A stretch of DNA of 64,000 bases from an uncultured delta proteobacterium (GCA_963745025.1 CAVUWD010000016.1:480001-544000), one strand, 5' to 3'. Positions 8,528 through 26,835 are shown, numbered from the stretch's first letter. Program-made: numbers and translations. The notes: generated by a model not told the origin, from the letters alone.

Positions 8528-8535
8528 CAGACGCC

Positions 8536-11198: not shown

Positions 11199-11689
11199 CT
11201 ATTTCTTGTGCTCCCCCTTGTGCTCGTGCTTCTTCGCTGCCCCGGGAGGAGGCAGGCCGATCGAGGCATGATCGAGCACGTAGCGCCAGCCGGAGCCGGT
11301 CTTCGCAATGACTTCCGTAGCGCGGATCTGCGAGGTCGTTGTCTTACCGTCGGGGTCGGTCTGTGTCACTTCCCAGTGACCAACGATCAAGATGTGAGAA
11401 TCGCCGAGCGGCATCCCCTCGAGCGACTTGATGACGGCCTTGGTATTGCTCTTTGCGTCGCAGAGACCGGGGATGAGCTTCTCGATCGCAGCCTTCCCCT
11501 TGGCCTCTTCCCCTGCTCCCGGCCACACGACGACCGCGTCATCCGCATATAGGGCGAGGACAGCGTTCACGTCGCCCGCCTCGCCGCTTTGGAAAAGGCT
11601 TCGTCATGCGCTCTGGCATCCGCCGTGGGGTCCGCGAAGGCCGGGGCTGCAAGCGCAAGTACCAGTGCTACCGCACTCCAGTTCCGCAT
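11199..11689 (-). CDS. Exported NTF2/SnoaL-like (DUF4440) protein, frameshift near 11585
   Basis: Signal peptide [19 protein letters not shown], then [14 protein letters not shown]...[10 protein letters not shown]. Confidence 0.75.
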
Positions 11690-11774
11690 GTTCGTCTCCT
11701 CCTCGGAGGTTTCTCCCACGACCGCGCCGACACGGTCAAGCAACGACCGAGAGCTGCGGAGCGAAGGCACGGGA

Positions 11775-12311
11775 TGTCTTGGATCCACGGCAGCACCACG
11801 CGGTAGACGTCGATCGGCACGCGAATGTTCTTCAGCTCCGGCTGCCCGAGTCGAACGAGTGGCTCCTCGATCTTGTTGCGAATCTGATCGAACACAGGAC
11901 CGGAGATGCAGATTCCCCCGGCTCCGCCAGGGGTTCGGGGCGGGCGGCGATGTTCACGCCGTCGCCGAAGACGTCGCCGTCGCGCACCTCCACGTCACCG
12001 AGATGGAGGCCGATGCGCACCTGGATGCGCCGCTCGGCTGCCTCGGATGAATTGCGCTGGACGAGCGCCTTCTGAATCCCGATGGCGCAGCGCGCCGCCT
12101 GCAAGGCGCTGGCGAACACCACCAGGAACCCGTCGCCGGTCTCCTTGACTTCGCGACCTCCGTACTGCGCAAAGATCGGCCGCAGCAGTTGGCGTTGCTC
12201 GCGGAGGAGAGCCAGCGCCAGCGCTTCGTCGCGCTGGGTCAGCGCGCTGTAGCCGACCATGTCGGTGAACATGATTGCGGCCAGCTTCCGGTGTTCCTCT
12301 TCGTCGGACAT
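11775..12311 (-). pseudogene. Class III adenylate/guanylate cyclase domain, truncated after the cyclase domain and frameshifted
   Basis: [41 protein letters not shown], then [13 protein letters not shown] in another frame. Confidence 0.85.
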
Positions 12312-12439
12312 GCGGTGGCTCGTGTTCCTACCACTTGCCCGTGCCCGGTGTCGAAACCGGTGCGTAGGCGCGGGGCGCAGTCGGAGTGTCGACGAGTCGA
12401 AAACCGGGTTGGGGACTTCGACTTTCGACTAGACTGTGG

Positions 12440-12514
12440 TCAAAACGCCTTCTGCACCTCGGGTGGTGCAGCGTCGTAGTCGCGTTGAAAGTGGCTCGTC
12501 AGGCGGTAGCGCAC
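12440..12514 (-). pseudogene. Truncated RelE/ParE-like toxin N-terminus
   Basis: Manual translation VRYRLTSHFQRDYDAAPPEVQKAF*, directly downstream of an RHH antitoxin. Confidence 0.5.
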
Positions 12515-12523
12515 GGCGGCGCA

Positions 12524-12811
12524 TTATGAGCGCGAGCGGCGCGCCTTGCGGCGCTGCCCGGCCATCCAGCGCTGCCCTTCCTCGACGGTCTCGAAAGTAG
12601 GGGACAGGCCCTTGCCGGCTTTGGCGTCGAGGTACGCTTGCCGGCCGGCTTCCTCGATGTCGGGTTGTGCCTGGAGGTAGAAGCGCAGGGCGTCGCGCAC
12701 CAGCTCACTCCGGCTGCGGTGGGCGGCTTTGCTGCGGCGATCGACCTGCTTCATCATCGGCACGGGCAGCGAGACGGTGACAACGGCGGTGGTTTGAGGA
12801 TTGCGTGGCAT
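12524..12811 (-). CDS. Ribbon-helix-helix (CopG-like) protein, putative antitoxin
   Basis: VVTVSLP...SRSELVRDALRFY and RelB-like tail GLSPTFETVEE; upstream TTGACG-17 nt-TAAGCT promoter. Confidence 0.75.
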   Translation of the reverse strand: MPRNPQTTAVVTVSLPVPMMKQVDRRSKAAHRSRSELVRDALRFYLQAQPDIEEAGRQAYLDAKAGKGLSPTFETVEEGQRWMAGQRRKARRSRS

Positions 12812-13081
12812 AGGGTTATGAACCTTTATTAAGTGAGCTTACCACGGTCGGCTGGGGGCGTCAACTTTGAGAGATGGGGCGACAGACGCGTACACCGATT
12901 TTGAATTGACACGCGTTGCGCGAGCTGCGCAACCTCATCGGGCGGCTGGTGATGATGACGCGCAGCGAGACGATCGGCGTCGCTTCGAAGCGAGTGATGA
13001 TCGACGAGGAGTCGTTGGCGCCGAACGGCGCGGTCCGCATGGTCCTCTGACCCGACGCGGCCGCCGCCTTTGAGGGAGCCC

Positions 13082-13879
13082 ATGTACGAAACTCTCGACG
13101 TTCACGGCGAAGACCGCGTGCTCTGGGTCGCGCTCAACCGCCCGGAGCGGCTGAACGCGCTGAATGCGCGGATGATCGAGGAGCTCGGGTCGTTGTTCGA
13201 CGCCTTGCCGGACGACCGCGAGACGCGCGTGGTGATCCTGCGCGGCGCCGGCAGGGCGTTCTGCTCCGGCTGGGACCTGCGGGACGAGTCGGCCGGGGGC
13301 GGCCTCACCGGTCCGGTCGACGCGGCGCTGGGCCTCCAGCGCCGCTTCAGCAGCGTGATCGTGCGCATGCGGCGAGTGCCGCAGCCGATCCTCGCGTGCG
13401 TGCACGGCGCGGCGACAGGCGGCGGGCTTTCGGTCGCGCTCGGCGCGGACGTGCGCATCGCGGGCGAGTCCGCGCGCATGAACTGCGCGTACATCCGCGT
13501 CGGCTTGGGCGGCTGCGACGCGGGATCGAGCTACTTCCTGCCGCGCATCGTCGGCGCCTCCGTGGCGGCCGAGCTCATTCTCACCGGCAACTTCATCGAC
13601 GCGGCGCGCGCGGAGCGGGTCGGGTTGGTGTCCCGGGTCGTTCCCGACGCGGAGCTCGAACCGGCGGCTCGAGCGCTCGCCCAAGACATCGTGCGGAACT
13701 CCCCGCTCGGCGTTCGACTCACCAAGGAATGCCTGAACGTCTCGATCGACGCGCCGAGCCTCGAAGCCGTGGTGGCGATGGAAGACCGCAATCAGATCCT
13801 CGCCGCCCAGTCGGGAGACTTTCGCGAGGGCCTGGCGGCATTCATGGAGAAGCGCCCGCCTCGCTACCGCGACGGCTGA
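13082..13879 (+). CDS. Enoyl-CoA hydratase/isomerase
   Basis: LNRPERLNAL, GAGRAFCSGWDL, VHGAATGGG, DFREGLAAFMEKRPP. Confidence 0.92.
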   Translation: MYETLDVHGEDRVLWVALNRPERLNALNARMIEELGSLFDALPDDRETRVVILRGAGRAFCSGWDLRDESAGGGLTGPVDAALGLQRRFSSVIVRMRRVPQPILACVHGAATGGGLSVALGADVRIAGESARMNCAYIRVGLGGCDAGSSYFLPRIVGASVAAELILTGNFIDAARAERVGLVSRVVPDAELEPAARALAQDIVRNSPLGVRLTKECLNVSIDAPSLEAVVAMEDRNQILAAQSGDFREGLAAFMEKRPPRYRDG

Positions 13880-13969
13880 ACGCGGAGCTGAGCCCGAGGA
13901 GGCAGTTCGCATCCTCGAGGAGCTCGCCAGGGCGAGGAATCAGGAGTAGACGAGGGGCAAGGCGGAGTG

Positions 13970-14377
13970 ATGACCGAGGCGGAGATTGCGACCTTCCACG
14001 ACAGTTTTCAACGGTGCATGGCGACGGGCCGGCGCTTCTTCGACGTTTTCTACGATCATTTCCTGAAATCATCGCCAGAGATTGCTGCGAAGTTTCAAAG
14101 AACCGATCTCAAGCGGCAGAAGCAGAAGCTAAAACTCTCACTCCACATGATGGTGGGCGCGTTGGTGCTCCACTCTGCGGATTACTCGATGTTAGCGTAC
14201 GTCGCGGAGCGCCACGCCCACACCAACTGGGATATCCCGCCAAATCTCTATCAGTTCTGGCTCGATTCGTTGATCTTCGCCGCGAAGATCTGCGATCCGT
14301 CCTTCGATGCCGAGACGGAGAAGAACTGGAGAACGGCGATGCAGCCGGGAATCGACTACATCGTATCGCTCTACTAA
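13970..14377 (+). CDS. Single-domain globin
   Basis: FFDVFYDHFLKSSPEIAAKF, RQKQKL, AERH...IPPNLYQFWLDSLI; typical bacterial globin pattern. Confidence 0.8.
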   Translation: MTEAEIATFHDSFQRCMATGRRFFDVFYDHFLKSSPEIAAKFQRTDLKRQKQKLKLSLHMMVGALVLHSADYSMLAYVAERHAHTNWDIPPNLYQFWLDSLIFAAKICDPSFDAETEKNWRTAMQPGIDYIVSLY

Positions 14378-14489
14378 CGGCGTCTCTTTTCAAAGAGACC
14401 CAATACCTGCCGCGACTTCGGCCTTGCAATCGGGTGCCATGCATTGATGCGGGAAAACTCTTTGGACACTGGGCGAAAGGAGGCCACAG

Positions 14490-14858
14490 ATGGCACTAGG
14501 TAAAGAGATCGGCGATTTTACGTTCAAACAGACATCCGCGACCTACGCGGAAGACGGTGGTAGCGTAAGCGTCAACTTCGATGGCACCGCCACGCGTTTC
14601 GGAACCGTCTTGGGCACACTGATCGCCCGTGGCGAGCCCGGGGCAAAGCAGGGCACATGCAGCTGGCGGGGACAGGGTTTTCTGGAGAACGGCGACAACG
14701 TGGTCGGCTTGGGCGAAGGGACGTGGCAGGAGACCGGAAAGCACCAATGGCGGATTCGGATGATCAACCAAACTTCGGACGGCCAGATTTTCGCCGCAGA
14801 TAGGCGGCTGGACCTCGCGACGCGCTCGTTCTCCGGCAAGCTCATTGAGTGGAGTTAG
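14490..14858 (+). CDS. Hypothetical protein, beta-rich
   Basis: Clean ORF with an AGGAGG-like SD (gaaaggaggccacagATG). Confidence 0.7.
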   Translation: MALGKEIGDFTFKQTSATYAEDGGSVSVNFDGTATRFGTVLGTLIARGEPGAKQGTCSWRGQGFLENGDNVVGLGEGTWQETGKHQWRIRMINQTSDGQIFAADRRLDLATRSFSGKLIEWS

Positions 14859-14870
14859 ACCCGGGTTTTT

Positions 14871-15045
14871 GACTCTCGCGGGCCGCGCACTGTCGCCGCA
14901 GATTCTGGAGCTGCGCGGACGTCTGGCCGCCGCGCTCGGTGACGCGCCGGCTTCCGACCTGACGCTGCGACGGGCGCTGGATCTCCACCGCGCCATCGGC
15001 GCCATGGGGCACGCCGAGCGGCTGGCGCGGGAGATCGGCGCATGA
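14871..15045 (+). repeat. Cyclase/ATPase/TPR gene 3'-end remnant, copy 1
   Basis: GRALSPQILELRGRLAAALGDAPASD...GHAERLAREIGA*; near-identical DNA at 16598-16798, 19088-19287 and 20365-20635. Confidence 0.85.
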
Positions 15046-15145
15046 AGTGCGCGAGGAGCGGTAGCCAGAGCCCCGAGCGCGCGAAGTTCTGCCTCGAATG
15101 CGGCGCCTCCTTCGCCTCGCGCTGCGCCAGCTGCGGGAGGGCCAC
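15042..15145 (+). pseudogene. Zinc-ribbon N-terminal remnant of a cyclase gene
   Basis: MKCARSGSQSPERAKFCLECGASFASRCASCG; ATG overlaps the preceding TGA. Confidence 0.75.
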
Positions 15146-15208
15146 TGACCGCAACTTGTGGTACCATACTTCCTCGCTGTTTTACCGACTGGGCCGAAGG
15201 AGCAGTGA

Positions 15209-15448
15209 ATGAGAACGTACAACATGACGGCCGTGATCTGGAAGGAAGCGAGCGCCTACGTCTCGAAATGCCCGGAGACCGGTGTCGCAAGCTGCGGCGA
15301 GACGCCTGAAGAGGCCCTGCGAAATCTCAAGGAGGCCGTCGAGCTGTACCTGGAAAACGCGAAACGCCTAGGGATGCTGCGAGACATCCACGATACCCTC
15401 GCCGCTCCTGGAAAATTCACCACCTCCTTTGCGGCTTCCGTGCGATGA
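15209..15448 (+). CDS. hicB: HicB-family antitoxin (short form)
   Basis: AVIWKE...YVSKCPETGVASCGETPEEALRNLKEAVELYLE. Confidence 0.9.
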   Translation: MRTYNMTAVIWKEASAYVSKCPETGVASCGETPEEALRNLKEAVELYLENAKRLGMLRDIHDTLAAPGKFTTSFAASVR

Positions 15449-15609
15449 GCAAGCTCCCGGGCCTCTCGTCCGACGAGGTCCTCAGGGCGCTGCGGAAGAT
15501 CGGATTCGTCTACGCTCCCAAGCGAGGGAAAGGCAGCCATGCGGCGTTGTATCGAACTGACGCAAGCGGCAAGACGTGGCTGGTGATCGTGCCGAAGCGA
15601 CAGAGCTGA
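15445..15609 (+). pseudogene. hicA: HicA-family toxin, C-terminally truncated
   Basis: Manual translation MSKLPGLSSDEVLRALRKIGF...RGKGSHAALY...VIVPKRQS*; GSH motif present, terminal helices missing. Confidence 0.75.
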
Positions 15610-15649
15610 AGCCTGGGAGCGTCGGGACGCCAAGCCCCGCTGGGCCAAG

Positions 15650-16530
15650 ATCCTCAGCTCCCGACCCGCGCGCCTACACTCCCAAGCACCTCGCCGAAAA
15701 GATCCTGCAGTCGAAGTCCGCTCTCGAAGGCGAGCGGAAGCAGGTGACGGTGCTGTTCGCCGACGTGAAGGGCTCGATGGATCTGGCCGAGCAGCTCGAC
15801 CCGGAAGATTGGCACGAGATCCTCGACCGCTTCTTCCAGATCCTCACCGACGGGGTGCATCGCTTCGAGGGCACGGTCAACCAGTACACCGGCGACGGCA
15901 TCATGGCGCTGTTCGGCGCGCCGATCGCCCACGAGGATCATGCGCAGCGGGCCTGCTATGCGGCGCTGCATTTGCGGGACGCCGTGCGCGAATACGCCAA
16001 CGAGGTGCGCGCGCGCCACGGCATCCCGTTCGGCGTGCGCATCGGCCTGAACTCGGGCGAGGTGGTGGTCGGCCGGATCGGCGACGATCTGCGCATGGAC
16101 TACACGGCGCAGGGGCATCGGCCTGGCGCAGCGGATGGAGGCGCTCGCCGAATCGGGGCACATCTGTCTCTCGGAGCACACGGCGCGGCTGGTCGAGGGC
16201 TACTTCCAGGTGAAGGACCTGGGACGCACCAGGGTCAAGGGCGTGGACGAGCCGGTCGGGCTCTACGACGGAGTGCCTCGCGAGCGGCGGCGGGCCGCGC
16301 GTCGTTGCCCCGATCCAACCTCCTCCAGGACCCGCGCCGACCACTCCAGCGTCGCCCGGCCGTCGCCTGCGTGGAGGTGTCCAAAGCCTGGGGACGTCCC
16401 AAGCGCCGCGCGCGGTGCCGTGAGAGTGCCGCGATCTCTCGTGATCGCCGCACGGGCCTCGTGATCCTTCCCCAGGTGCTGGCCTTACTTGCGGAGGCAC
16501 ACCTGGCACTCGGGGAGGAGGCCGCACGCA
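15650..16530 (+). pseudogene. Internal remnants of a zinc-ribbon/cyclase/ATPase/TPR gene
   Basis: YTPKHLAEKI, GERKQVTVLFADVKGS, YTGDGIMALFGAPIAHEDHAQRAC, RIGLNSGEVVVG, then a jump to TPR text ILPQVLALLAEAHLALGE. Confidence 0.85.
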
Positions 16531-16597
16531 TCGCGGCGGAGTGCGACGATCCGAGGGCACAGTACGCCATCACTCGGGACGACTCGTTGTCGAGCTT

Positions 16598-16798
16598 TTC
16601 GAACGTGCCGAGCACCTGGTCGAGTCGATCGAGGGCCGCTCGCTGTCGCCGCGGATCCTGGAGATGCGCGGGCGCCTGGCCGCCGCGCTCGGCGACGCGC
16701 CGGCTTCCGGCCGGGCGCTGCTACAAGCGCTCGAGCTCTACCGAGCCATCGGTGCAACGGGGCACGCCGAGCGGCTGGCGCGGGAGCTCGGGAGTTAG
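16598..16798 (+). repeat. Cyclase/TPR gene 3'-end remnant, copy 2
   Basis: FERAEHLVESIEGRSLSPRILEMRGRLAAALGDAPAS...AERLARELGS*. Confidence 0.85.
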
Positions 16799-16890
16799 GC
16801 GGTCGGGTTCAGAGGCCTCGAGGCGACGCGGCGACCCGCCGGTTACAGGCGCGTATCTACATAACGTATGTACGGAGAGAAGGGGAGGCG

Positions 16891-17076
16891 ATGAGCGGAC
16901 GGGCCAAGCAGCGCCGATGGAGCCGGGCCTTCATCGAGCTGGCTGGCGCAACGCCCGACTTCCAACGCGGTACGATCATCAGCCCCAACGACCTCAAGAT
17001 CGCGGCGCATGTGCTGTCCTTGGACCTCGTGCTGGTACTGGCACCACACCCCAGCGTCGCTTCGCTCCGATCATGA
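16891..17076 (+). pseudogene. Internally deleted in-frame vapB-vapC fusion copy
   Basis: DNA matches three separate pieces of 19382-19953; the upstream region 16799-16890 matches 19288-19381. Confidence 0.8.
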
Positions 17077-17174
17077 TCACTCGGCATGACTGATCACGAT
17101 CCCCGGAACAGATGATCACGATGGGCGGAATGCGCACGTCGTGCACCCGACGCTTCCCAAGTCGATCGACGGCC

Positions 17175-17489
17175 TCAGGCCGCCTTCGTCTTCGCTAGCG
17201 GCCGGATCTCTTGCTCGATGCGATCGAGGAGCGCGTCTTCGGCGCTCTCGAGATCGTAGGCCGCCTGCGCGTTCATCCAAAACTCCGGGGTCGTGCCGAA
17301 ATAGCGCGCGAGCCGAAGCGCCGTGTCGGACGTGATGCCGCGCCGGCCGTGCACGATATCGCCGATCCGCGTAACCGGCACGTGCAGATCCATCGCGAGC
17401 CTGTTCATCGTGATCCCCAGAGGCTTCAAAAACTCCTCCAGCAGGATCTCGCCGGGATGGATCGGGGCAAGCTTCCTTCTCTTGGCCAT
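17175..17489 (-). CDS. higA: HigA antitoxin (HTH XRE)
   Basis: PIHPGEILLEEFLKPLGI...ITSDTALRLARYFGTTPEFWMNAQ. Confidence 0.95.
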   Translation of the reverse strand: MAKRRKLAPIHPGEILLEEFLKPLGITMNRLAMDLHVPVTRIGDIVHGRRGITSDTALRLARYFGTTPEFWMNAQAAYDLESAEDALLDRIEQEIRPLAKTKAA

Positions 17490-17504
17490 GCGCTGTTCCT
17501 CCTT

Positions 17505-17783
17505 CTAGTGATAGTCGACGATCTCGACGTCGTAGGCGTCTCCATCGCGCCACACGAAGCAGAGTCTCCATTGGTCGTTCACCCGGATGCTATGCTGCCC
17601 TCGTCGATCGCCCTTTAACGCTTCGAGTCGATTAGCGGGCGGTGCCGCCAGGTCCTTCAATTCCTTCGCGATATGAAGCAGCCGAAGCTTTCGCAGAGCA
17701 ACCCGCTCGATCGCAGCGAATTGTCGGCTCCGCTCGCGGTGGAAGAAACTCTCGGTTTTTCCATCGCCGAAGCTCTTGATCAC
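17505..17783 (-). CDS. higB: HigB toxin (RelE family)
   Basis: MIKSF...PPANRLEALKGDRRGQHSIRVNDQWRLCFVW...VEIVDYH. Confidence 0.95.
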   Translation of the reverse strand: MIKSFGDGKTESFFHRERSRQFAAIERVALRKLRLLHIAKELKDLAAPPANRLEALKGDRRGQHSIRVNDQWRLCFVWRDGDAYDVEIVDYH

Positions 17784-17789
17784 TACTGA

Positions 17790-17820
17790 GGTTCATATAC
17801 TGTAATCCAGTATACGTCAA
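17790..17820 (-). promoter_or_regulatory. higBA promoter with an inverted-repeat operator
   Basis: -35 TTGACG at 17820-17815; TATACTG-N5-CAGTATA palindrome at 17796-17814. Confidence 0.6.
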
Positions 17821-17915
17821 CCAGGGGATCCGCGCAGGAGGTCCGCGGCCGGGACGGCCGGCGGTTCCCAACCTCAGAGCGGAAGAGATAGGTTCGTAGG
17901 CTCGGAGGCAGGACG

Positions 17916-18152
17916 GTGCGGTGTGCGGCGTGCGGGTCTGAGAACCCAGCGGAAGCGAACTTCTGCAACGGCTGCGGCGCGGCCCTATCCGCTCACTGCG
18001 TCGCGCGCGGAGCGGACAACCCGGCCGGATCGCGCTTCTGCAACCACTGCGGGGGTTCGCTGGTCGGCGGAGGCAGCGATGCGGTCCTCGAGGTCCTGGT
18101 CGACACGGCAGATTTGAAGGACGCGAACGCCCTGCTCAAAGGGCTTTCGTGA
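17916..18152 (+). pseudogene. Double zinc-ribbon N-terminus fused directly to a cyclase/ATPase C-terminus
   Basis: CAACGSENPAEANFCNGCG...NPAGSRFCNHCG followed by DTADLKDANALLKGLS*, which resembles the family's terminal FDTADLKEAKALL motif. Confidence 0.7.
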
Positions 18153-18176
18153 CAACGTTCGACAACGATGTTCGGG

Positions 18177-18560
18177 TCATCTTGCTTCCCCGGCAAAGAG
18201 AACGAGATCCGGGATGTCACGATAGTGGCGCCAGTTTCGCGTAACCAAGGGAAGGCGCTTGACCAGCGCCGCGGCCGCAATCAGGGCATCTTCTTTGGGT
18301 AGGTTGCGATGCGCGCTCCGCAGCGACGAATAGCGCTCCGCGATTCGCCCGTCGAGCCGCACCAGCCGATGCCGTCTGAGCACCTCAAGGATGGCCTCTC
18401 GCTCTCGAGATCGGAGTCCCCGTTTGGCGAGCAACTCCCTACGAGTCACCGCCGTATAGTAGATGACGAAGCGGCTGGCCTCCATGATCGAAGCGAAGCG
18501 TCCGCTATTGAGATAGTCGATGAGGACATCGGTATCTACGAGGAGCCCGATTTTTGCCAC
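18177..18560 (-). CDS. vapC: VapC/PIN-domain toxin
   Basis: LLVDTDVLIDYL, EDALIAAAAL, LVTRNWRHY. Confidence 0.9.
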   Translation of the reverse strand: MAKIGLLVDTDVLIDYLNSGRFASIMEASRFVIYYTAVTRRELLAKRGLRSREREAILEVLRRHRLVRLDGRIAERYSSLRSAHRNLPKEDALIAAAALVKRLPLVTRNWRHYRDIPDLVLFAGEAR

Positions 18561-18805
18561 CGCCGGATCTCCTCGAGAAAAGCTTCGTCGGTTTTCTTGT
18601 CGGAGCTCCGCCGGAGCGCTCGAACGTAAGCCACGCTATCGAGGACATCCGTGTGGCCATAAGGATTGAACTTCTCGCGCACCATCTCTTCGAGGATCGC
18701 CACGGGATACACCCCGCGCCTTCTCGCGGCGCGGATCACGAGTCGCTTGAGGTTCGAGTCGAACGACAGCGTCCACTTGTCCTTCGTGAGAGACGTCTTA
18801 GGCAT
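18536..18805 (-). CDS. Putative RHH-type antitoxin
   Basis: Small ORF (KWTLSFDSNLKRLVIRAARRRG) overlapping the start of the PIN gene. Confidence 0.65.
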   Translation of the reverse strand: MPKTSLTKDKWTLSFDSNLKRLVIRAARRRGVYPVAILEEMVREKFNPYGHTDVLDSVAYVRALRRSSDKKTDEAFLEEIRRWQKSGSS

Positions 18806-18864
18806 CGCGTGGCTCCGTACGTGTGAAATACGTATCATGAGAGCGGCGGAACTTCTACGATGAA

Positions 18865-19287
18865 GTGCTCACGGGGCGCGCATACCTTCCCCAGGTGCTG
18901 GCCGTACTCGCGGAGGCGTATCTGGCATTTGGCGAACGGACCGAGGCCTTGGCGACGGCGCGCGAGGCCGTCGATCTGGGACGCGGCGGCGGTTGCCGCT
19001 ACTTCGAAGCGCACGCGCAGCTCGCGCTGGCCGGGGCCCTGCTGGCAACGGACGGCGTCGTGCCACGAACGGAAATCGAGGCCGCCCTCGAACGCGCCGA
19101 GTACCTGGTCGAGTCGATCGAAGACCGCTCGCTGTCGCCGCGGATCCTGGAGATGCGCGGGCGCCTAGCTTCCGCGCTCGGTGACGCGCCGGCTTCCGAC
19201 CGGGCGCTGCGGCAAGCGCTGGATCTCTACCGCACCATCGGCGCCACCGGGCACGCCGAGCGGCTGGCGCGGGAGATCGAGTGTTAG
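18865..19287 (+). pseudogene. Cyclase/TPR gene 3'-end remnant, copy 3 (longest)
   Basis: YLPQVLAVLAEAYLAFGERTEALATAREAV...LSPRILEMRGRL...AERLAREIEC*. Confidence 0.85.
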
Positions 19288-19330
19288 GCTGCCGGGTTCA
19301 GAGGATCGAGGCGACCCTGCGACCCGCCGG

Positions 19331-19361
19331 TTGCAGGCACGTATCTACATAACGTATATAC
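19331..19361 (+). promoter_or_regulatory. vapBC promoter/operator
   Basis: TTGCAG...TATATA with paired GTATCTAC / GTATATAC boxes; near-identical copy at about 16843-16873. Confidence 0.55.
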
Positions 19362-19381
19362 GGAGCAGAAGGAGGAGGGAG

Positions 19382-19618
19382 ATGAGCGAACGGGCCAAGC
19401 TTTTCATGAGCGGCGGGAGTCAGGCGGTTCGCCTCCCGAGAGCCTACCGCTTCGAGAACCAGAAAGAAGTGTTGATCTCACGAAAGGGTCAGCAAGTGAT
19501 CTTGGAACCAAAGCGGCGCCGATGGAGCCCGGCCTTCATCGAGTTGGCTGGCGCAACGCCCGACTTCCCGTATCCGGACGAACCACCCCCAAGCGACCAC
19601 GGCCCTGACTTTGAATGA
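19382..19618 (+). CDS. vapB: VapB antitoxin (AbrB/SpoVT type)
   Basis: AKLFMSGGSQAVRLPRAYRF...EVLISRKGQQVILEP. Confidence 0.92.
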   Translation: MSERAKLFMSGGSQAVRLPRAYRFENQKEVLISRKGQQVILEPKRRRWSPAFIELAGATPDFPYPDEPPPSDHGPDFE

Positions 19619-20022
19619 AGTACCTCCTCGATACGAATGCGTGCGTCGACTATCTGAACGGCCGCTTTCCGAGATTGACGGAGCGAATTCAGCAATCGGC
19701 GCCGAGCGATCTGGCTGTCAGCTCCGTCGCCGTTGCCGAGTTGAGATACGGTGCCGAGAAGAGCAGTCAGCGACAGCGGAATCACGAGCGACTCGACGTG
19801 TTTTTTGGCGACGTTCCCTGCGTCGACTTCGACAGCGGCGCCGCGTTGGTCTACGGCCGCGTCCGCGCGGTCTTGGAACGACGCGGTGTGGTCATCGGCC
19901 CCTACGACCTCCAGATCGCGGCGCATGCGCTGTCCTTGGACCTCGTGCTGGTCAGCGACAACGTCCGCGAGTTCCGGCGGGTTGAAGGCCTGAAGGTCGA
20001 GAACTGGCGGCGCCGGCGGTGA
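19615..20022 (+). CDS. vapC: VapC toxin (PIN)
   Basis: MKYLLDTNAC, AELRYGAEKS, IGPYDLQIAAHAL, LVSDNVREFRRV. Confidence 0.95.
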   Translation: MKYLLDTNACVDYLNGRFPRLTERIQQSAPSDLAVSSVAVAELRYGAEKSSQRQRNHERLDVFFGDVPCVDFDSGAALVYGRVRAVLERRGVVIGPYDLQIAAHALSLDLVLVSDNVREFRRVEGLKVENWRRRR

Positions 20023-20051
20023 GCGAAGCCTCGCTCGCAAACCGAGCGCGA

Positions 20052-20635
20052 ATGGATTGCGGTAGTTGTGGAGTAGAGATCCTACCGGATTCGCTTTTCT
20101 GCACGGCATGCGGTGCGAAGATCGAGATCCAGTGCAGCGCTTGCTCGGCCCGTAACCCGCCTGGCGCGAGGTTCTGCCGAAAATGCGGCAGCACCCTGGG
20201 CGCCGACGTTCAGGTCGCAGATAGGCACCCCGAGCCGCGACCCCCGAGCCGCGGAGCTACACCCCCAAGCACCTCGCCGAGAAGCGGCGGTGATCGGCAA
20301 GGACTTCACCGAGCCGATTCTGCAGCGTGTCGTCAGTGAGGTCGGCCGGTCGCCCCTCCCGAGCGCAGCTCGCACTGGAAGCGGCCCTGCTGGCGACGGA
20401 CGGCGTCGTGCCCCGCGCGAAGATCGAGTCCGCCCTCGAGCGCGCCGAGTACCTGGTCGAGTCGGTCGCGGGCCGCTCGCTGTCGCCGCGGATTCTGGAG
20501 ATGCGCGGGCGCCTGGCAGCCGCGCTCGGCGACGTGCCGGCTTCCGACCGGGCGCTGCGGCAGGCGCTGGAGCTCTACTGCGCCATCGGCGCCACCGGAA
20601 ACGCCGAGCGGCTGGCGCGGGAGCTCGGCGCATGA
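20052..20635 (+). pseudogene. Collapsed cyclase gene: double zinc ribbon, short internal snippets, and 3'-end copy 4
   Basis: MDCGSCG...FCTACG...CSACS...FCRKCG; SYTPKHLA; AAVIGKDFTEPIL; then AQLAL...AERLARELGA*. Confidence 0.8.
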
Positions 20636-20700
20636 AGTGCGCGAACAGCGGTAGCCGGAGCCCCGAACCGCGCGAAAGATTCTGCCGCCGGCAAACGCCT
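20632..20700 (+). repeat. Degenerate zinc-ribbon start, same junction as at 15042
   Basis: ggcgcATGAagtgcgcgaacagcggtagccggagccccga versus ggcgcATGAagtgcgcgaggagcggtagccagagccccga. Confidence 0.75.
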
Positions 20701-20879
20701 GAACGGGTAGAGTGCGGAGAAGCATTCGCCGTGCGCTCGCCCTCGCTGCAGCCCGGAGCCCCGGCAGGCGCGAGTTTGCCTTCCCTGACGTCTTTCGTTC
20801 CGCTGCGCGGGCCGGTGCAAGCGAACCTGTGCGAACCTGTGCGAGATTGACATGCAGAGCCATGAGCCCTTAGGAGATC

Positions 20880-20895
20880 TGGTCAAGGTTGACCA
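20880..20895 (+). promoter_or_regulatory. Candidate Phd operator
   Basis: TGGTCAA-GG-TTGACCA inverted repeat between a TTGACA box and the SD of the antitoxin gene. Confidence 0.5.
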
Positions 20896-20908
20896 ACTGG
20901 AGGCTGCG

Positions 20909-21154
20909 ATGCCGGAAACAATTCTGAATCTTTATGAGGCAAAGTCGTCTCTGTCGCGGCTCGTCGATCGTGCCGCCGCGGGAGAAGAGATCATCATCGC
21001 CAAGGCGGGGAAGCCGATGGCAAAGTTGGTCGCCGTTTCGCGGCGGGCACGCCGCCGCAAGCCGGGCGGTTGGAAGGGACGGGTCGTCATCGCCAAGAAC
21101 TTCGACGCGCCGCTGCCCGCGGCGATCCGCGCGGCGTTCGCAGGCCGACGGTGA
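20909..21154 (+). CDS. Phd/YefM-family antitoxin
   Basis: NLYEAKSSLSRLVDRAAAGEEIIIAKAGKPMAKLV...FDAPLP. Confidence 0.93.
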   Translation: MPETILNLYEAKSSLSRLVDRAAAGEEIIIAKAGKPMAKLVAVSRRARRRKPGGWKGRVVIAKNFDAPLPAAIRAAFAGRR

Positions 21155-21162
21155 GCGTGGCG

Positions 21163-21537
21163 ATGCGGTTGTTGCTGGACACCCATGTGTTCCTCTGGTG
21201 GCGGGATGACAGCCGCAGGCTGAAAACAAGCGCGCGGCGTGCCATCGCCGAAGCGCAGATCGTGTTCGTCAGCGCCGCCACCGCATGGGAAGCCGCCATC
21301 AAGGCCGCCCTCGGACGGCTGCAAATTCCGGATACCGTCGAGGCGGGCGTGATCGACAGTGGCTTTGAGAAGCTGCCGATCGGCTTCTCCCACGCCGAGT
21401 CGGCGGCCCGCTTGCTACCGCACCACGCGGATCCGTTCGATCGGATGCTGGTCGCGCAGGCGAAGGCGGAAGGGTTGACGCTGGTGACCCACGATCGGCG
21501 GCTCGCACCATACGAGATCGAGATCTTGTGGACCTGA
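21163..21537 (+). CDS. vapC: VapC/PIN-domain toxin
   Basis: MRLLLDTHVFLWW, VSAATAWE, HHADPFDRMLVAQA, LVTHD. Confidence 0.95.
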   Translation: MRLLLDTHVFLWWRDDSRRLKTSARRAIAEAQIVFVSAATAWEAAIKAALGRLQIPDTVEAGVIDSGFEKLPIGFSHAESAARLLPHHADPFDRMLVAQAKAEGLTLVTHDRRLAPYEIEILWT

Positions 21538-21591
21538 CACGCACGGAGTTCCTCAACCTGCTCTAAGGGTAGGCGCCGGATCGACCGCGAT

Positions 21592-22449
21592 ATGCGCGGC
21601 TCTGCATGTGGCCGAGAAAATCGCAGTGACTCCAGGTTCTGCCTGGGCTGTGGAGTTACACTGGCTCCCACGTGCCCGCATTGCAGCCGCGAGGTCCCGA
21701 GCGATGCTGCGTTCTGCGATGGCTGCGGGCTACCCGGAGAGGGCCGGCCTCCCGGCAATCGGTGGATAGGGCCGAAGACGGTTTGGCTGGAACTGCCCTT
21801 TCCCCAATGATCACCCCGCAACTACACACCCAAGCACGGCGCGCCGATCGCGCATGAGGATCATGCGCAGCGGGCTTGCTACGCGGCGCTCTCGCTGCGC
21901 GATCGCCTGCGCGTATGGGCCGAGACCTACGATCGCGAGATCACGGACGTGTTTGCCCTCCAGGACGAGATCAGCGCGACCATAGCGGCGTCGCTGGTGG
22001 GCGACCTCACGCGGGCGGAGGGGGAGCGCGCGCGACAGAAGGGCACCGAGAACCTCGAGGCGTGGAGCCTCTACCAGCTCGGCTTGCAGCGTGCCGACCG
22101 CATGACGCCTGCCGACATGGCCGAGGCACGTCGGCTCTTCGAACGAGCGGTCGCGCTCGACCCGCGCTTCGCGACCGCGCTGGCACAGCTGGCTTTTGCA
22201 GATCTCTGGGAAGTGGTGTTCGGCTCGGGCGATGCCCCCGAAAAGAAAGTGGCCGATGCGCTCGGGAACGCCCGGCGAGCGGTCGAGCTCGACTGGCGAG
22301 ATCCCATCGCCCAGGCCGCGCTCAGCTGGGCCCAGCTCTCCGGAGGCGATCTCCGGAACGGGTTCGACTCGGCGCGGCGCGCCGTGGAGTTGAACCCGAG
22401 CATCGGTTGGCTCACTGCTGACAATCTGCCGTCAGGGCTTGGCTCCTAA
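21592..22449 (+). pseudogene. Mosaic cyclase remnant: zinc ribbon, cyclase snippet, TolB-like/TPR region
   Basis: CGRENRSDSRFCLGCG..CPHC..FCDGCG; YTPKH; GAPIAHEDHAQRACYAAL; VWAETYDREITDVFALQDEI...FERAVALDPRFA. Confidence 0.8.
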
Positions 22450-22562
22450 TGATCTAGCGCTCAGACGCTCGTGCACATCGCCTCCAGCCGGCTTCGTCGA
22501 CGACGCGAACGATTCTCGCACGGAGCGGTGGGTGAGAGTATGATCGGGAAGGCGCGAGGACA

Positions 22563-22958
22563 ATGGCTCAGTACGAGATCGAGGTGATCTTGCTCCGGCA
22601 GCTCGCGAGCTACCTCGCGATGCCCATCTTCATCGTCGATCCGCGCGGTACCCTCGTTTTCTACAACGAGCCGGCGGAGATCATTCTCGGCAAGCGGTTC
22701 GAAGAGACGGGCGAGATGAGCCCCGAGGAATGGTCGACGGCCTTCCGGCCTACAGACGAACAGGGCCGCCCGTTGGAGCCGGAGGCGATGCCGCTGATGA
22801 TCGCTTTCAACGACCGCCGTCCCACGCACGGGAGCCTCTGGATCCAGGGCTTCGACGGCGTTCGCCGCCACATCGAAGCGACGGCGTTTCCGCTCGTCGG
22901 CCAGTCGGATCGATTCCTCGGGGCGGTCGTCCTCTTCTGGCTGAAGGCGGCTCCATGA
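22563..22958 (+). CDS. Stand-alone PAS-domain protein
   Basis: MPIFIVDPRGTLVFYNEPAEIILG...PLVGQSDRFLGAVVLF. Confidence 0.85.
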   Translation: MAQYEIEVILLRQLASYLAMPIFIVDPRGTLVFYNEPAEIILGKRFEETGEMSPEEWSTAFRPTDEQGRPLEPEAMPLMIAFNDRRPTHGSLWIQGFDGVRRHIEATAFPLVGQSDRFLGAVVLFWLKAAP

Positions 22959-23794
22959 ACGTTCGCTTTTGGGGAACGCGCGGATCGCTGGCGTCGCCGG
23001 GTGCGGAAACAGCGAGATACGGCGGCAACACCGCGTGTGTGGAAGTGCGCGGTCGCGATGGCACGCTCCTCGTCCTCGACGCCGGAACCGGCATTCGCCG
23101 CCTCGGAGCTACGCTGCCGAAGACACTCGTTCGCGTGAACGTCCTTCTCACCCATCTGCACATGGACCACATTCAAGGCCTCGGCTTCTTCGCGCCGCTT
23201 CACGATCCAAAGATGGAGATCCACATTTGGGGGCCGGCGAGCACTACGCTCACGCTTGCGGAGCGGCTCAAGCGATACCTATCGCCGCCGCTTTTTCCCG
23301 TGCGCTTGAGGGACCTTGCCTGCCGGTTGCGACTTCACGAAGTGCCTTGCAGCGAAGTCGAGATCGGAGAATTTCGCATTGCCTCCATGCTCGTTTGCCA
23401 TCCCGGGCCAACGGTCGGATATCGAATCGCGAGTCGCGACGGAGTGGTCGCATATCTACCGGACCACGAGCCGGCGCTCGGCGCGCCGAACTTTCCGATC
23501 GCCGCCGAGTGGACGTCGGGTTACGAGCTCGCGGCGGGAGCCGATCTCCTCATCCACGACGCTCAGTACAGCGCCGAGGAGTACGGCGATCACGTCGGCT
23601 GGGGGCACAGCGCCTTCGAGGACGTCGTCCGCTTCGCAGAACTCGCCGGAGCGAGGCGCCTCGTCCCATTTCACCACGACCCGGCGCACACCGACGCCGA
23701 TCTTGACCGTATGCTCTCGAGCCGTGGGGGCGCGACGTCGTCGCTCGAGATCACGCCGGCAACGGAGGGGGCGTCGCTCGAGCTCGAGTCGTGA
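22955..23794 (+). CDS. MBL-fold metallo-hydrolase (RNase Z/cyclic-nucleotide phosphodiesterase-like)
   Basis: FWGTRGS, YGGNTACVE, LDAGTG, THLHMDHIQG, HDAQY, GWGHS, FHHDP. Confidence 0.9.
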   Translation: MNVRFWGTRGSLASPGAETARYGGNTACVEVRGRDGTLLVLDAGTGIRRLGATLPKTLVRVNVLLTHLHMDHIQGLGFFAPLHDPKMEIHIWGPASTTLTLAERLKRYLSPPLFPVRLRDLACRLRLHEVPCSEVEIGEFRIASMLVCHPGPTVGYRIASRDGVVAYLPDHEPALGAPNFPIAAEWTSGYELAAGADLLIHDAQYSAEEYGDHVGWGHSAFEDVVRFAELAGARRLVPFHHDPAHTDADLDRMLSSRGGATSSLEITPATEGASLELES

Positions 23795-24077
23795 CCGGCC
23801 TCGAATTACCTTCCGGCGCTCATGCGGTCACGGATGAAGCGCTGTGCGTCGGGCGAGAGGTTTCGACACGAGTCGATTGTCTGCCGCCGATCCGCGAAAT
23901 CAGCATTGACGAGCTGGCTGCTTGACGTCGACCTGCCGAACGGCCTTCTGCCGCCCCTACGCAAGCGGGCGATCGTTGGCGAGACCGTGATCGATGCCCC
24001 AGGCCTCGGAAGCTAGTCCACACAACCCTGTCGAGACTCGCTTTCCTGCTAGCCGACGCTGATATAGCAGAAATGCC

Positions 24078-25157
24078 ATGACGCGAGCCATCGAGGATCG
24101 CAACAAGGCCGTCGCGCTCGCGCAGCAGGTCGGGGTCGACTTCGGCGCCGCAATGACCGTGGCGCTCGCCTACATCGGCGATCGACTGGGAATCTTCAAG
24201 GCGATGGCCGGGGGCGCGTCGATGACCAGCTTGGAGATCGCGCAGCGCACGCGCCTCGATGAACGATACGTGCGCGAGTGGGCATCGACGATGGCCGCTG
24301 CCGGATATCTCGACTACAGCTCCACCGACGCCACCTTTCGGGTGAACGCCGAGCAGGCGATGGTGCTCGCCGATGAGGACAACACCTTCTTCACGGGCGG
24401 CGCCTTCCAATACGCTGTCACCTGCTACCGGCAGATTCCGAAATTGATGGAAGCGTTCCGCCACGGCGGCGGTGTTCCATTTGCAGACTTCGGTCCCGAG
24501 ATCGTGGAAGCGATCGCGCGGCTCTTTCGGGTGGGCTACGAGACCTGGGTAGCGGGGCAATGGATTCCGGCGGTTCCTGACGTTCACGAACGGCTTACGA
24601 GGGGAGGGGAGGTCGCCGAGATCGGCTGCGGAACGGGTCAATGCATCATTCCCGTCGCCTCGGCGTACGCAAATTCCCGGTTCTTCGGTTGTGACCTCGA
24701 CCTCCACTCGATCGAGCAGGCCCGGGACAAGGCCGTTCGAGCTGGAATCGCGGACCGGATCTCATTCGAGCAGATTGCGGCGGAAGATCTTCCGTTCGTC
24801 GATCGTTTCGACCTCGTGATGGCCTTCAACTGCATCCACGACATGGCGCGCCCACGAGCCGCGCTGGCCGCCATACGCCGCGTACTCAAGCCGGGTGGTG
24901 CCCTGCTGTGGTCCGAAGCGGACGCGTCGGACCACCTCGAAGAGAACCTGAACCCCGTGGGACGTATGCTCTACGGCGCGAGCACGATGCATTGCATGAC
25001 CGTGTCGCTGGCCGACGACGGCGAGGGCCTCGGCGTGGTGGTCGGGGAGAACAAGGCTCGGAGCATGGCCCTGGAGGCCGGATTCGCCAGTTTCGAGAGG
25101 CTCGAGATCAAGAATCCGTATCACCAGATCTTCCTCGCTCGCCGATCGCTTCTCTAA
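24078..25157 (+). CDS. SAM-dependent methyltransferase with N-terminal winged helix (Rv2258c-like)
   Basis: IGDRLGIF, ERYVREW, EIGCGTG, CIHDMARP, STMHCMTVSLA. Confidence 0.88.
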   Translation: MTRAIEDRNKAVALAQQVGVDFGAAMTVALAYIGDRLGIFKAMAGGASMTSLEIAQRTRLDERYVREWASTMAAAGYLDYSSTDATFRVNAEQAMVLADEDNTFFTGGAFQYAVTCYRQIPKLMEAFRHGGGVPFADFGPEIVEAIARLFRVGYETWVAGQWIPAVPDVHERLTRGGEVAEIGCGTGQCIIPVASAYANSRFFGCDLDLHSIEQARDKAVRAGIADRISFEQIAAEDLPFVDRFDLVMAFNCIHDMARPRAALAAIRRVLKPGGALLWSEADASDHLEENLNPVGRMLYGASTMHCMTVSLADDGEGLGVVVGENKARSMALEAGFASFERLEIKNPYHQIFLARRSLL

Positions 25158-25273
25158 CGACCCGCGGGAACGGTGCACGCGTCGTCCCGACCGGCCCACG
25201 AGCCATGTAGCAACCGCCCATGAAAGGCGACTGTCACAAGCGTTGCGTGGTCAAGCGGGTGCAGCCGAACGAG

Positions 25274-25573
25274 CTAGCGACGAGAGCCGCCGGCGACCAG
25301 CTTTCGTCGCGCTTGGCCAGAGTGCCGTCGCTGGAGCCACTGTAGGATGTCGGTGCGAGGCAGGAACGGACCGCGGCAACGAATCGCTTCGCGGTAGACG
25401 ATGTCGGCCTCGATGAGCTCTTCGATATAACGCTGCAGCGGGTAGGTGCCGCCGTTCGTTTCCATGTTGTGCAGCACCAACTTCAGACGATCGAGCCAGG
25501 CGCCTTCGAGAGTGACCTCAACCCGCAGCGGTCGGCCCACGGTGGTCACGCGCGCCTGAATCTCCTTCGCCAT
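25274..25573 (-). CDS. Hypothetical protein
   Basis: ORF MAKEIQARV... with protein-like composition, filling the intergenic space. Confidence 0.55.
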   Translation of the reverse strand: MAKEIQARVTTVGRPLRVEVTLEGAWLDRLKLVLHNMETNGGTYPLQRYIEELIEADIVYREAIRCRGPFLPRTDILQWLQRRHSGQARRKLVAGGSRR

Positions 25574-25680
25574 CAGCCTCGACTCATATCCCAACGAGCG
25601 GGGTCCCCACAAGAGAAGTTCTGGTGAAGGCCGCGCGCGGACGGAATTTTGGGTCCGCTTCTGGTATACGGAGCAGTGGT

Positions 25681-26835
25681 ATGCTGACGCGCGAGGAGTT
25701 CGCAGCGCTCGAGGACCAGCGGCTCGCTGGCTATGCGATGCGCAACCGGCACACGCGCGGACGCGTGCATGCCGAGCCGGAGCATCCGTTTCGTCTGCCG
25801 TTCCAGCGGGATCGAGATCGCATCATCCATTGCTCGGCGTTTCGCCGCCTCGAGTACAAGACGCAGGTCTTCGTGAACCACGAAGGCGACTACTACCGCA
25901 CGCGCCTCACCCACACGATGGAGGCGGCGCAGATCACGCGCACGATCGCCCGCGCCCTTCGCTTGAACGAAGACCTCGCCGAGGCGATCGCCCTGGCGCA
26001 CGATCTCGGGCACACGCCCTTCGGCCATGCCGGCGAGCGGATTCTCGACCGGCTGATGCAGCCGCACGGCGGCTTCGAGCACAACGCCCAGAGCCTGCGT
26101 ATCGTCGACGTGCTCGAGGAGCGCTACCCTCGGTTTGCCGGCCTGAATCTCTCGTGGGAGGTGAGGGAAGGGATCGTCAAGCACTCCACGCGCTACGACC
26201 GCCCTCAGGTCGTCGAGTTCGACGCCAACAAGGCGCCGACGCTCGAAGCGCAGATCGTCGATTACGCCGACGAGATCGCCTACAACGCGCACGACATCGA
26301 CGACGGGTTGAAGTCCGAGATGTTGACGCTCGACGATCTGGAAGGCGCGGCGATCTGGCGCGAGCATCATCGGGACGTGTGCAACGCCTATCCATCCGCC
26401 GATCGATCGATCGTGCGTTACCAGACCACGCGGCGGATCATCGACGCCTTCGTCGCGGATCTCATCGAGACCACCGAGCGGCGTCTCCACGAGCGCGGCG
26501 TGGAGCGCACCGAGGAGGTCTGGGCGATCAAGCCGAAGCTCGTCGACTTCAGCGCCGCGATGGCCGAGAAGGTGAGCGAGCTGAAGGGGCTGCTCTTCGA
26601 GAGGCTCTACAGTCACTATCGCGTCAAGCGAATGGCGGTGAAGGCCGACCGCATCATGAGCGATCTCTTCCAGACGTACATGAGCGAGCCTCGGCAGATG
26701 CCGCCGCACGTCCACGGGAAGATCGTCGGCGGCGAGCCGACTGCTCGCGTGGTCGCGGACTACATCGCCGGCATGACCGATCGCTTCGCTCTCGACGAGT
26801 TCAAGAAGCTCTTCGACCCGTACGAGAAGGTATAG
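25681..26835 (+). CDS. dgt: Deoxyguanosinetriphosphate triphosphohydrolase (HD domain)
   Basis: FQRDRDRIIH, FRRLEYKTQV, RTRLTHT, HDLGHTPFGHAGE, DYIAGMTDRFA. Confidence 0.95.
   Translation: MLTREEFAALEDQRLAGYAMRNRHTRGRVHAEPEHPFRLPFQRDRDRIIHCSAFRRLEYKTQVFVNHEGDYYRTRLTHTMEAAQITRTIARALRLNEDLAEAIALAHDLGHTPFGHAGERILDRLMQPHGGFEHNAQSLRIVDVLEERYPRFAGLNLSWEVREGIVKHSTRYDRPQVVEFDANKAPTLEAQIVDYADEIAYNAHDIDDGLKSEMLTLDDLEGAAIWREHHRDVCNAYPSADRSIVRYQTTRRIIDAFVADLIETTERRLHERGVERTEEVWAIKPKLVDFSAAMAEKVSELKGLLFERLYSHYRVKRMAVKADRIMSDLFQTYMSEPRQMPPHVHGKIVGGEPTARVVADYIAGMTDRFALDEFKKLFDPYEKV

Follow-up and report, generated by a model that had tools for sequence, protein, structure and literature searches.

A toxin-antitoxin array interleaved with remnants of cyclase/AAA_16/TPR genes in an uncultured delta proteobacterium

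Here we present an analysis of a toxin-antitoxin (TA) gene array in a 64,000-nt stretch of DNA from an uncultured soil or wetland bacterium (GCA_963745025.1, CAVUWD010000016.1:480001-544000), referred to below as the window, with positions counted from its first letter. The array, at 14.9-22.5 kb of the window, consists of six predicted type II TA modules that alternate with four 3' gene ends and five zinc-ribbon gene starts, and all of these ends and starts lie on the + strand. They derive from a family of zinc-ribbon/cyclase/AAA_16/TPR proteins of ~1120-1185 aa. A preliminary description, made from the sequence of the window, had listed these elements and read them as an integron-like array in which gene ends serve as homology arms for the capture of TA cassettes. 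By repeat search, Pfam and tblastn, its list of elements and their order are correct, and the cassette-like alternation of TA modules with the termini of family genes is confirmed.

The window is C16:480001-544000 of G000, a 5.65-Mb metagenome bin; contig names given below without a genome refer to this bin. The relatives compared are eight genomes of the same taxonomic family, which are 65-84% complete and mutually non-independent. G001 is a sister genome from the same genus as G000, and G003 and G006 represent other genera. TA loci were detected with six Pfam families (PIN, Phd, HigB, ParE, PemK and HicA), and the pieces of the array were mapped by tblastn with one full-length paralogue of 1185 aa as the query (the reference in Table 1).

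The gene pairs of the array are predicted to be type II TA modules from the adjacency or overlap of the two genes, together with family matches over the cut-off. Four of the six modules are on the + strand; higBA and the pair made up of a PIN toxin and a 100-aa open reading frame (ORF) are on the - strand. The latter pair had been described as RHH/PIN; its PIN half stands, but the RHH label is unverified, as the ORF matched no family in Pfam or NCBIfam. The hicA gene has lost its 3' end at the junction with a cyclase piece and scored 25.6 bits in the genome scan, under the cut-off. The first vapBC copy is dead. It keeps its promoter/operator region and, relative to 19306-20022, carries internal deletions of 110 and 312 bp and lacks the last 70 bp; the live copy, 89-95% identical, lies 2.5 kb away. 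The segment from 3' end 2 through the dead vapBC (16599-17036) is a duplicate, at 89-95%, of that from 3' end 3 through the live vapBC (19088-19952), the blastn pairs being 16599-16909/19088-19400, 16906-16963/19511-19568 and 16965-17036/19881-19952. This duplication is old. For the hicBA, vapBC and phd/PIN units no close copies were seen among the matches listed (41 genomes), the best phd/PIN match being ~70-71%.

A direct-repeat search returned one family, with four copies of 265 nt at 14773, 16526, 19015 and 20363. In pairwise local blastn the 3' copies matched each other at 85.9-89.6% over 155-314 nt, with E-values of 1e-47 to 1e-108, so that chance likeness is ruled out. Four copies are indeed present, but the preliminary description had made them near-identical and ~170-200 bp long; their usable lengths are 155-410 bp and their identities 86-91%. 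They map to the last 49-128 residues of the 1185-aa paralogue. Of the five zinc-ribbon starts, all on the + strand as originally described, four are matched by Pfam DZR and the fifth (start d) is seen by DNA likeness to 14998-15093 alone, having lost its cysteines and matching zero Pfam families. The array pieces cover only residues ~10-330 and ~1056-1185 of the intact proteins and are therefore remnants, not working members. Also in line with the preliminary description, tblastn with the 1185-aa paralogue found no full-length family gene inside the 64-kb window; two intact family genes lie 12-19 kb before its start.

The remnants differ in what they retain. Zinc-ribbon start a, whose ATG overlaps the stop of 3'-end remnant 1 (ATGA), has lost one cysteine and breaks off after 'RCASCG'. 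The cyclase piece at 15651-16269 corresponds to reference residues ~52-328 in two frames, with a frameshift near 16118, and is followed at 16269-16599 by an inverted 104-bp scrap and more fragments of the same gene type. In the mini-gene at 17916-18152 the zinc ribbon runs into the ~17 terminal codons of another kind of 3' end (DTADLKDA..LL..LS); this tail weakly matches C17:6157-6207 and C20:5003-5050 (E 0.015-0.02), both of which directly precede a zinc-ribbon start. Start c keeps its linker up to 'YTPKHLAEK', the rest being deleted, and in translation is joined out of frame to 3'-end remnant 4 (20019-20635). The chimeric remnant at 21592-22449 runs in one frame from start e through an in-frame stop (21808-21810) and a 28-codon cyclase scrap into the post-cyclase/TPR region of a second cyclase family, and is 70.9% identical to C11:556985-557156. 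The ATGA stop/start overlap is kept at 15042 and 20632, as at the intact tandem junctions C7:123826 and C17:66967. A 97% block common to G000 and G003 begins at 17082, within a 100-bp element of TGATCACGAT-like repeats. At the left edge of the array, 3'-end remnant 1 abuts the stop of an unrelated 122-aa ORF (14490-14858, +). This ORF has no Pfam or NCBIfam match, is 91% conserved in G001 and 86% in G006, and in G006 has its counterpart on the other side of the cyclase genes.

Table 1. Coordinates of the array, its upstream continuation, the tblastn matches to the 1185-aa reference and the blocks shared with other genomes
Feature	Position	Strand	Evidence
hicB-like antitoxin	15209-15448	+	DUF7387 33.4 bits, over cut-off; HicB_lk_antitox 23.2 bits, under cut-off
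hicA toxin, 3'-truncated	15445-15609	+	Pfam HicA_toxin 27.1 bits, profile positions 2-38 of 58
Dead vapBC copy	16818-17036	+	Direct repeats and blastn to 19306-20022
higA antitoxin (HTH)	17175-17489	-	Pfam HTH_3 35.6 bits
higB toxin	17505-17783	-	Pfam HigB-like_toxin 65 bits
PIN toxin	18177-18560	-	Pfam PIN 45.5 bits
Candidate antitoxin, 100-aa ORF	18536-18838	-	By position alone; overlaps PIN start by 25 bp
vapB antitoxin	19385-19618	+	NCBIfam TA_anti_VapB 65.4 bits (cut-off 60); MazE_antitoxin 21.7 bits
vapC (PIN) toxin	19615-20022	+	Pfam PIN 58.8 bits
phd-family antitoxin	20852-21154	+	PhdYeFM_antitox 35.9 bits; NCBIfam phd_fam 27.5 bits
PIN toxin	21151-21537 (listed ORF starts 21070)	+	Pfam PIN 69.3 bits
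3'-end remnant 1, last ~49 codons	14876-15045	+	92.6% to G000:C7:123662-123918; tblastn
Zinc-ribbon start a	15042-15137	+	Pfam DZR 28.7 bits (15042-15212); 90.6% to C17:66920-67058
Linker and cyclase-domain piece	15651-16269	+	Guanylate_cyc 53.2 bits; 90% to G006:C11 gene
Inverted 104-bp scrap, same gene type	16310-16413	-	95.2% to C7:123022-122919, opposite strand
3'-end remnant 2 (16422-16516 and 16599-16798)	16422-16798	+	86.3% and 94.3% to C7; tblastn, residues 1124-1185
100-bp element, three TGATCACGAT-like repeats	17037-17137	none	Second copy C15:53128-53215, 85%
Zinc-ribbon start b mini-gene, 78 aa, open	17916-18152	+	Pfam DZR 39.5 bits
3'-end remnant 3, longest, ~128 codons	18870-19287	+	90.7% to C7:123409-123818; tblastn, residues 1056-1183
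Zinc-ribbon start c and linker	20019-20290	+	Pfam DZR 44.1 bits (20019-20339); direct repeat; tblastn, residues 70-141
3'-end remnant 4	20363-20635	+	89.1% to copy 3; tblastn, residues 1108-1185
Degenerate zinc-ribbon start d	20632-20686	+	86.9% to 14876-15093; ATGA overlap with remnant 4
Chimeric remnant with zinc-ribbon start e	21592-22449	+	DZR 45.5 bits (21592-21810); weak TPR matches
tblastn match	14896-15042		Reference residues 1137-1185
tblastn match	15582-16269		Reference residues 99-328, two frames
tblastn match	16610-16795		Reference residues 1124-1185
tblastn match	17916-18062		Reference residues 68-116
tblastn match	18898-19278		Reference residues 1056-1183
tblastn match	20058-20276		Reference residues 70-141
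tblastn match	20399-20632		Reference residues 1108-1185
tblastn match	21595-21837		Reference residues 69-133
tblastn match	21838-21921		Reference residues 209-236
Shared block, higBA and zinc-ribbon start b	17082-18070		G003:C51, 97.3%, 990 bp
Shared block, PIN and antitoxin	18148-18881		G006:C24, 95.4%, 736 bp
Shared block, RHH/PIN	G000:C6:4668-5455		G006:C24, 97.8%, 788 bp
Upstream island, phd/PIN	8341-9254	+	Pfam over cut-off
Upstream island, PemK toxin	within 9447-10106	-	Pfam over cut-off
Upstream island, TPR remnant	within 9366-10496	+	Pfam over cut-off
Upstream island, second-cyclase-family remnant	11832-12311	-	Pfam over cut-off
Upstream island, orphan RHH gene	12524-12811	-	Pfam over cut-off

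A structure of this kind might be an artefact of assembly, a chimeric path through similar paralogues in a metagenome-assembled genome. The bin is 92.65% complete with 7.6% contamination, four of its contigs end inside family copies, and among the public runs none holds more than 0.19 of the sampled words of the stretch, nor does any listed contig piece span the whole of it, although parts that lack cover carry no information either way. However, the array sits 495 kb deep in a 1.14-Mb contig, eight of its junctions are bridged by short contigs from four wetland or soil metagenome runs of four studies, and three junction-bearing blocks recur in independently assembled genomes. The bridging contigs (151-274 nt, without substitutions and with at least 31 nt on each side) cover the junctions at 16269, 16516, 16798, 17036 (in two runs), 18177, 18870, 21537 and 21810-21837; that over 18177 has one inserted base and that over 21810-21837 two single-base deletions. 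With the junctions bridged and the blocks found in independent assemblies, a misassembly of several loci, the danger raised in the preliminary description, is very improbable. One of the four bridging runs could be the source sample. The 274-nt contig of run X3 lacks one base each at 21693 and 21736, in the zinc-ribbon remnant e, which is either a strain difference or an assembly error. Contig joints at 17983>20257, 15928>16668, 16094>16787, 16297>16575, 20181>21116 and others were not counted as deletion variants, because each occurs in single contigs whose shorter side spans 20-50 nt, at 90% likeness, and may come from paralogues or other organisms.

The family from which the remnants derive is both expanded and decaying. 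By profile search, intact paralogues of 1119 and 1185 aa show the order DZR, Guanylate_cyc, AAA_16, TPR. Using ten long paralogues in tblastn, we found 67 family loci in G000, of which 15 are long (at least 2.5 kb) and 52 shorter; decay is thus a trait of the whole genome and not of the array locus. PF12773 zinc-ribbon matches number 59 in G000, 58 in G001, 27 in G006 and 6-11 in five relatives of lower completeness, and many of those in G001 sit in short open frames. G000 has six copies of the array-type 3' end, four of them within the array and one each on C7 and C19; G001 and G003 have one copy each and G006 has two. None was found in G002, G004, G005 or G007, so that four of the eight genomes carry it. 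Each 3' remnant is nearer to the long C7 gene and its G006:C11 counterpart (90-96%) than to the other remnants (86-91%), and dN/dS is 0.28-0.77 for the 3' remnants versus 0.08 between the two long genes, on small counts; both results fit independent, relaxed decay. Seven of the 52 short loci have an integrase or rve match no more than 2 kb away, versus 2% of random places.

Several family loci deserve separate mention. Examples, often in tandem with ATGA overlaps, are found at C16:460834-467630, C17:1126-5849, C17:63410-70471 and C6:515191-519166. The long genes nearest to the array remnants (C7:120396-123826 and C17:66987-68744) read in two or three frames, owing either to frameshifts or to assembly errors in repeats. 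At C11:245600-257700, five short family remnants on the - strand are flanked by IS3-type (rve) transposase genes, with no TA genes.

The scans returned 34 TA loci in G000. Within the array, each of the six remnants has a TA locus no more than 1 kb away. Elsewhere in G000 this is true of one of 46 remnants, with two within 2 kb and three within 5 kb, versus 1.4%, 2.3% and 4.9% of random places, and of none of the 15 long family loci. A general association seen from the remnant side was therefore rejected, and the enrichment of remnants beside TA genes that the preliminary description would have taken as support does not extend beyond the array in G000. From the TA side, family DNA, at 3.5% of the genome, comes within 1 kb of four of 21 PIN matches in G000 (p = 0.006); once the array is left out, it does so for one of 18 (p = 0.48). 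Manual counts among the matches listed gave ~4 of 22 in G001 and ~5 of 18 in G006, four of the latter sharing one island. TA modules recur next to family termini at eight further loci in four genomes (G001:C3, C2, C17 and C10; G006:C6 and C24; G003:C51; G000:C6). The association is real but loose, and is visible from the TA side, not from the remnant side.

The further loci include intermediate states that form a graded series. At the near-intact G001:C10, a PIN module stands between two nearly full-length family genes together with a 67-bp zinc-ribbon scrap; at G001:C2, two TA modules lie upstream of an internally deleted family gene; and at G006:C6, G001:C17 and G001:C3, as also at G003:C51 and G000:C6, only scraps flank the TA modules. 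The locus G006:C24:148000-176000 is a 28-kb TA island that holds at least six PIN matches and genes resembling PemK and HigA, besides numerous family scraps and a single full-length family gene; it is a larger counterpart of the array in another genus. At G000:C6:4462-5738, RHH/PIN stands beside a zinc-ribbon-to-C-terminus mini-gene and an N-terminal-domain scrap.

In the window itself the same island extends upstream to 8.3-12.8 kb (Table 1), and six of the 34 TA loci of the genome fall at 8.3-22.5 kb, that is, in ~14 kb. A tRNA-linked island was considered and dropped, as no tRNA lies within 18 kb of the array. Adjacent tRNA-Ala(TGC) and tRNA-Ile(GAT) genes at 40417-40573 (-), arranged as in a 16S-23S spacer, probably mark an rRNA operon.

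Three TA-bearing blocks are shared with other genera at 95.4-97.8% identity, and the neighbouring DNA on the same contigs is 68-92% identical. The C6 RHH/PIN block is 97.8% identical to G006, of another genus, versus 89.5% to G001:C2, of the same genus, and its ends agree within ~20 bp in three genomes, running from an operator palindrome to ~70 bp past the PIN stop. For this block and for 18148-18881, high identity ends within ~70 bp of the TA ORFs, the flanks are unrelated, and no terminal motif common to the two was seen at their ends. Next to the same higBA stands phd/PIN in G003 and the dead vapBC in G000; cassette content at comparable positions differs between relatives, where identical content would have counted against the preliminary reading. 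Furthermore, in G003 the ATGA overlap has the phd start codon precisely in the place of the start of the following gene. TA units behave as discrete cassettes, from the promoter to ~70 bp past the stop, in contexts that differ between genomes. The constant ends of the C6 block and its higher identity across genera make these units look horizontally exchanged as discrete entities.

How such units come to lie among family termini could be explained by an integrase-free cassette system, in which the dispersed termini of the ~60-copy family are homology arms and RecA-type recombination moves the TA modules. TA units carrying scraps of termini would then enter any tandem family junction, within a genome or between genera, and the scraps around them would be the footprints of earlier moves. 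The vapBC duplication carries a 3' end with it, TA modules recur at family junctions, the C6 unit is closer to another genus than to its own, and the cross-genus identities exceed those of neighbouring DNA. In addition, the higBA block carries 155 bp of zinc-ribbon start at 97%, as an arm would, and the gene start in G003 is replaced exactly. However, the left ends of the four 3' copies are all different, the TA modules variously follow a 3' end, lie within a gene or separate two starts, with no constant order of arms, and TA genes (hicA, vapBC) are themselves cut. Identities of 86-91% over 155-410 bp also make a poor substrate for homologous recombination, two of the three cross-genus blocks stop at the TA unit, and the remnants outside the array are hardly ever near a TA locus. 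The 67-bp start scrap between the TA module and an intact gene at G001:C10 is a further difficulty, because a clean double crossover would not leave it. We consider RecA-type movement on such arms improbable, and an integrase-free counterpart of the integron correspondingly doubtful. What remains of the preliminary reading is the discreteness of the TA cassettes, one duplication and variable content; the homology arms are not supported, given the ragged ends and unrelated flanks, and an integron built from gene termini is weakly supported.

An integron proper, or a cluster of attC sites lacking integron-integrases (CALIN), was rejected. PF00589 has 22 matches in G000 and none in the window (nearest C16:634354 and C16:317898), and the window has no PF00665 (rve) match; the absence of integrases and transposases first noted from the sequence thus holds for these two families, other transposase families not having been searched. 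A crude scan for attC-like RYYYAAC...GTTRRRY pairs 45-150 nt apart gave 0 in 8000-26000 (shuffles, mean 0.12), and no inverted repeat bounds a TA module (33 pairs, longest 36 nt at 72%). Nor does the array show the integron hallmark of uniformly built cassettes that share one orientation and mostly lack promoters: its modules lie on both strands, with remnants of differing extent between them. The chromosomal integron with TA cassettes is still the closest known system. The Vibrio cholerae superintegron is described as having interspersed TA cassettes with their own promoters, thought to penalise DNA loss (Richard et al. 2024, PMC13108822), and, as in the sedentary chromosomal integron arrays described there, TA modules are interspersed in our array and its content varies between relatives. 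Unlike the superintegron, the array has neither an integron integrase in the window nor attC-like pairs in the crude scan. In place of recombination sites its repeats are raggedly broken termini of coding genes. Of its six modules, two are on the opposite strand, and its non-TA units are gene wrecks. The likeness would thus be limited to a putative anti-deletion role.

We favour, at a probability of about 0.6, the reading that the array is the wreck of tandem zinc-ribbon/class III cyclase/AAA_16/TPR genes in a TA-collecting variable region of the chromosome. A tandem origin is suggested because all remnants map to family termini and ATGA junctions are kept. In this pathway TA modules would arrive as small self-contained units with their own promoters and settle where tandem family genes join, or close by. 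The dispensable family genes would then erode through numerous separate deletions, frameshifts, a small inversion and the duplication of one segment, and deletions removing an active antitoxin would be purged by post-segregational killing. The end or start of the neighbouring gene would then remain beside each TA module, so that the DNA touching a module would always be a gene end or a gene start, and a gene caught between two modules would shrink to a start-to-end mini-gene. Mini-genes of this kind are present at 17916-18152, 20019-20635 and G000:C6:5316-5738. The cut hicA beside an intact hicB, the orphan RHH gene at 12524-12811 and the dead vapBC beside its live copy are signs of toxin-first decay, which would be consistent with addiction logic. 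From this anatomy, the termini beside modules and the toxin-first decay, we infer both the sequence in which the events took place and the protection conferred by TA addiction.

The preliminary description had itself mentioned a collapsed tandem cyclase array with surviving TA modules as an alternative, and this fits better than homology arms in view of the ragged breaks and the graded series in relatives. Every remnant has its own breakpoint, and decay is preferred because these breakpoints all differ, because TA genes are cut, and because of the inverted scrap and the second-family chimera. Several points weigh against decay. Erosion alone leaves unexplained the excess of TA modules at family termini over chance; a permissive target, a shared defence role or recombination may be the cause of this preference. 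The 97% identity of the higBA block to G003 takes in zinc-ribbon DNA. The protective effect would depend on TA addiction that is predicted for the array. At G006:C24 an N-terminally truncated phd precedes an apparently intact PIN gene, which simple addiction logic does not predict. Finally, remnants 10-14% apart would have persisted for long, which is unusual for neutral bacterial DNA.

The array could also be a defence island, in which STAND-like cyclase/AAA_16/TPR sensors undergo birth-and-death evolution, TA modules are defence cargo and the remnants are the debris of an arms race. This overlaps the decay pathway, the main difference being the selective cause. The large family with its tandem arrays, many pseudogene pieces and mosaics, the enrichment of short loci near integrase or rve matches and the TA clustering in ~14 kb would all be expected, and the cyclase domain matches the PADLOC PycC models (best E 2.5e-24), which hints at a role of the family in defence. 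However, what the PycC models match is the generic class III cyclase domain alone, the other PADLOC families are unmatched save for one weak TPR match, and no phage genes lie nearby. Similar mycobacterial cyclase-ATPase proteins, moreover, are described as signalling enzymes. On balance we regard a defence island as unlikely. The mycobacterial Rv0386 group is of the class III cyclase, AAA_16 (STAND-like) and TPR/HTH type, and the intact paralogues resemble it in the order of Guanylate_cyc, AAA_16 and TPR. Unlike that group, the present family has an N-terminal double zinc ribbon, no HTH and ~59 copies per genome, with only scraps in the array.

TA-rich variable islands occur in free-living and slow-growing bacteria, and the array resembles them in its many mixed type II families (HicAB, HigBA, VapBC, Phd/PIN and PemK) over ~14 kb, with signs of horizontal exchange and partial decay. 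Unlike them, its modules are interleaved with the termini of one expanded family, an arrangement that recurs in three further genomes. Birth-and-death clusters such as those of plant NLR genes share its tandem paralogues, unequal recombination, mosaics and truncated copies, but the array lies on a bacterial chromosome and has selfish TA modules at its gene junctions. We class it as a variable island rich in TA modules that has grown into an array of decaying paralogues. The literature searched contained no paper that describes TA modules lying among remnants of cyclase/TPR genes, nor one that links Binatota with adenylate cyclase.

The cyclase/AAA_16/TPR family is in itself unusual, both for how large it is and for how far it has decayed, and the recurrence of TA modules at the junctions of this one family in four genomes, together with their near-identity across genera, merits a systematic survey. 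If the decay pathway is correct, the array would provide a natural picture of addictive TA modules shaping the decay of a genome. Its signature, gene termini and start-to-end mini-genes beside the modules, could then be sought in other places as an indirect sign that TA modules are active.

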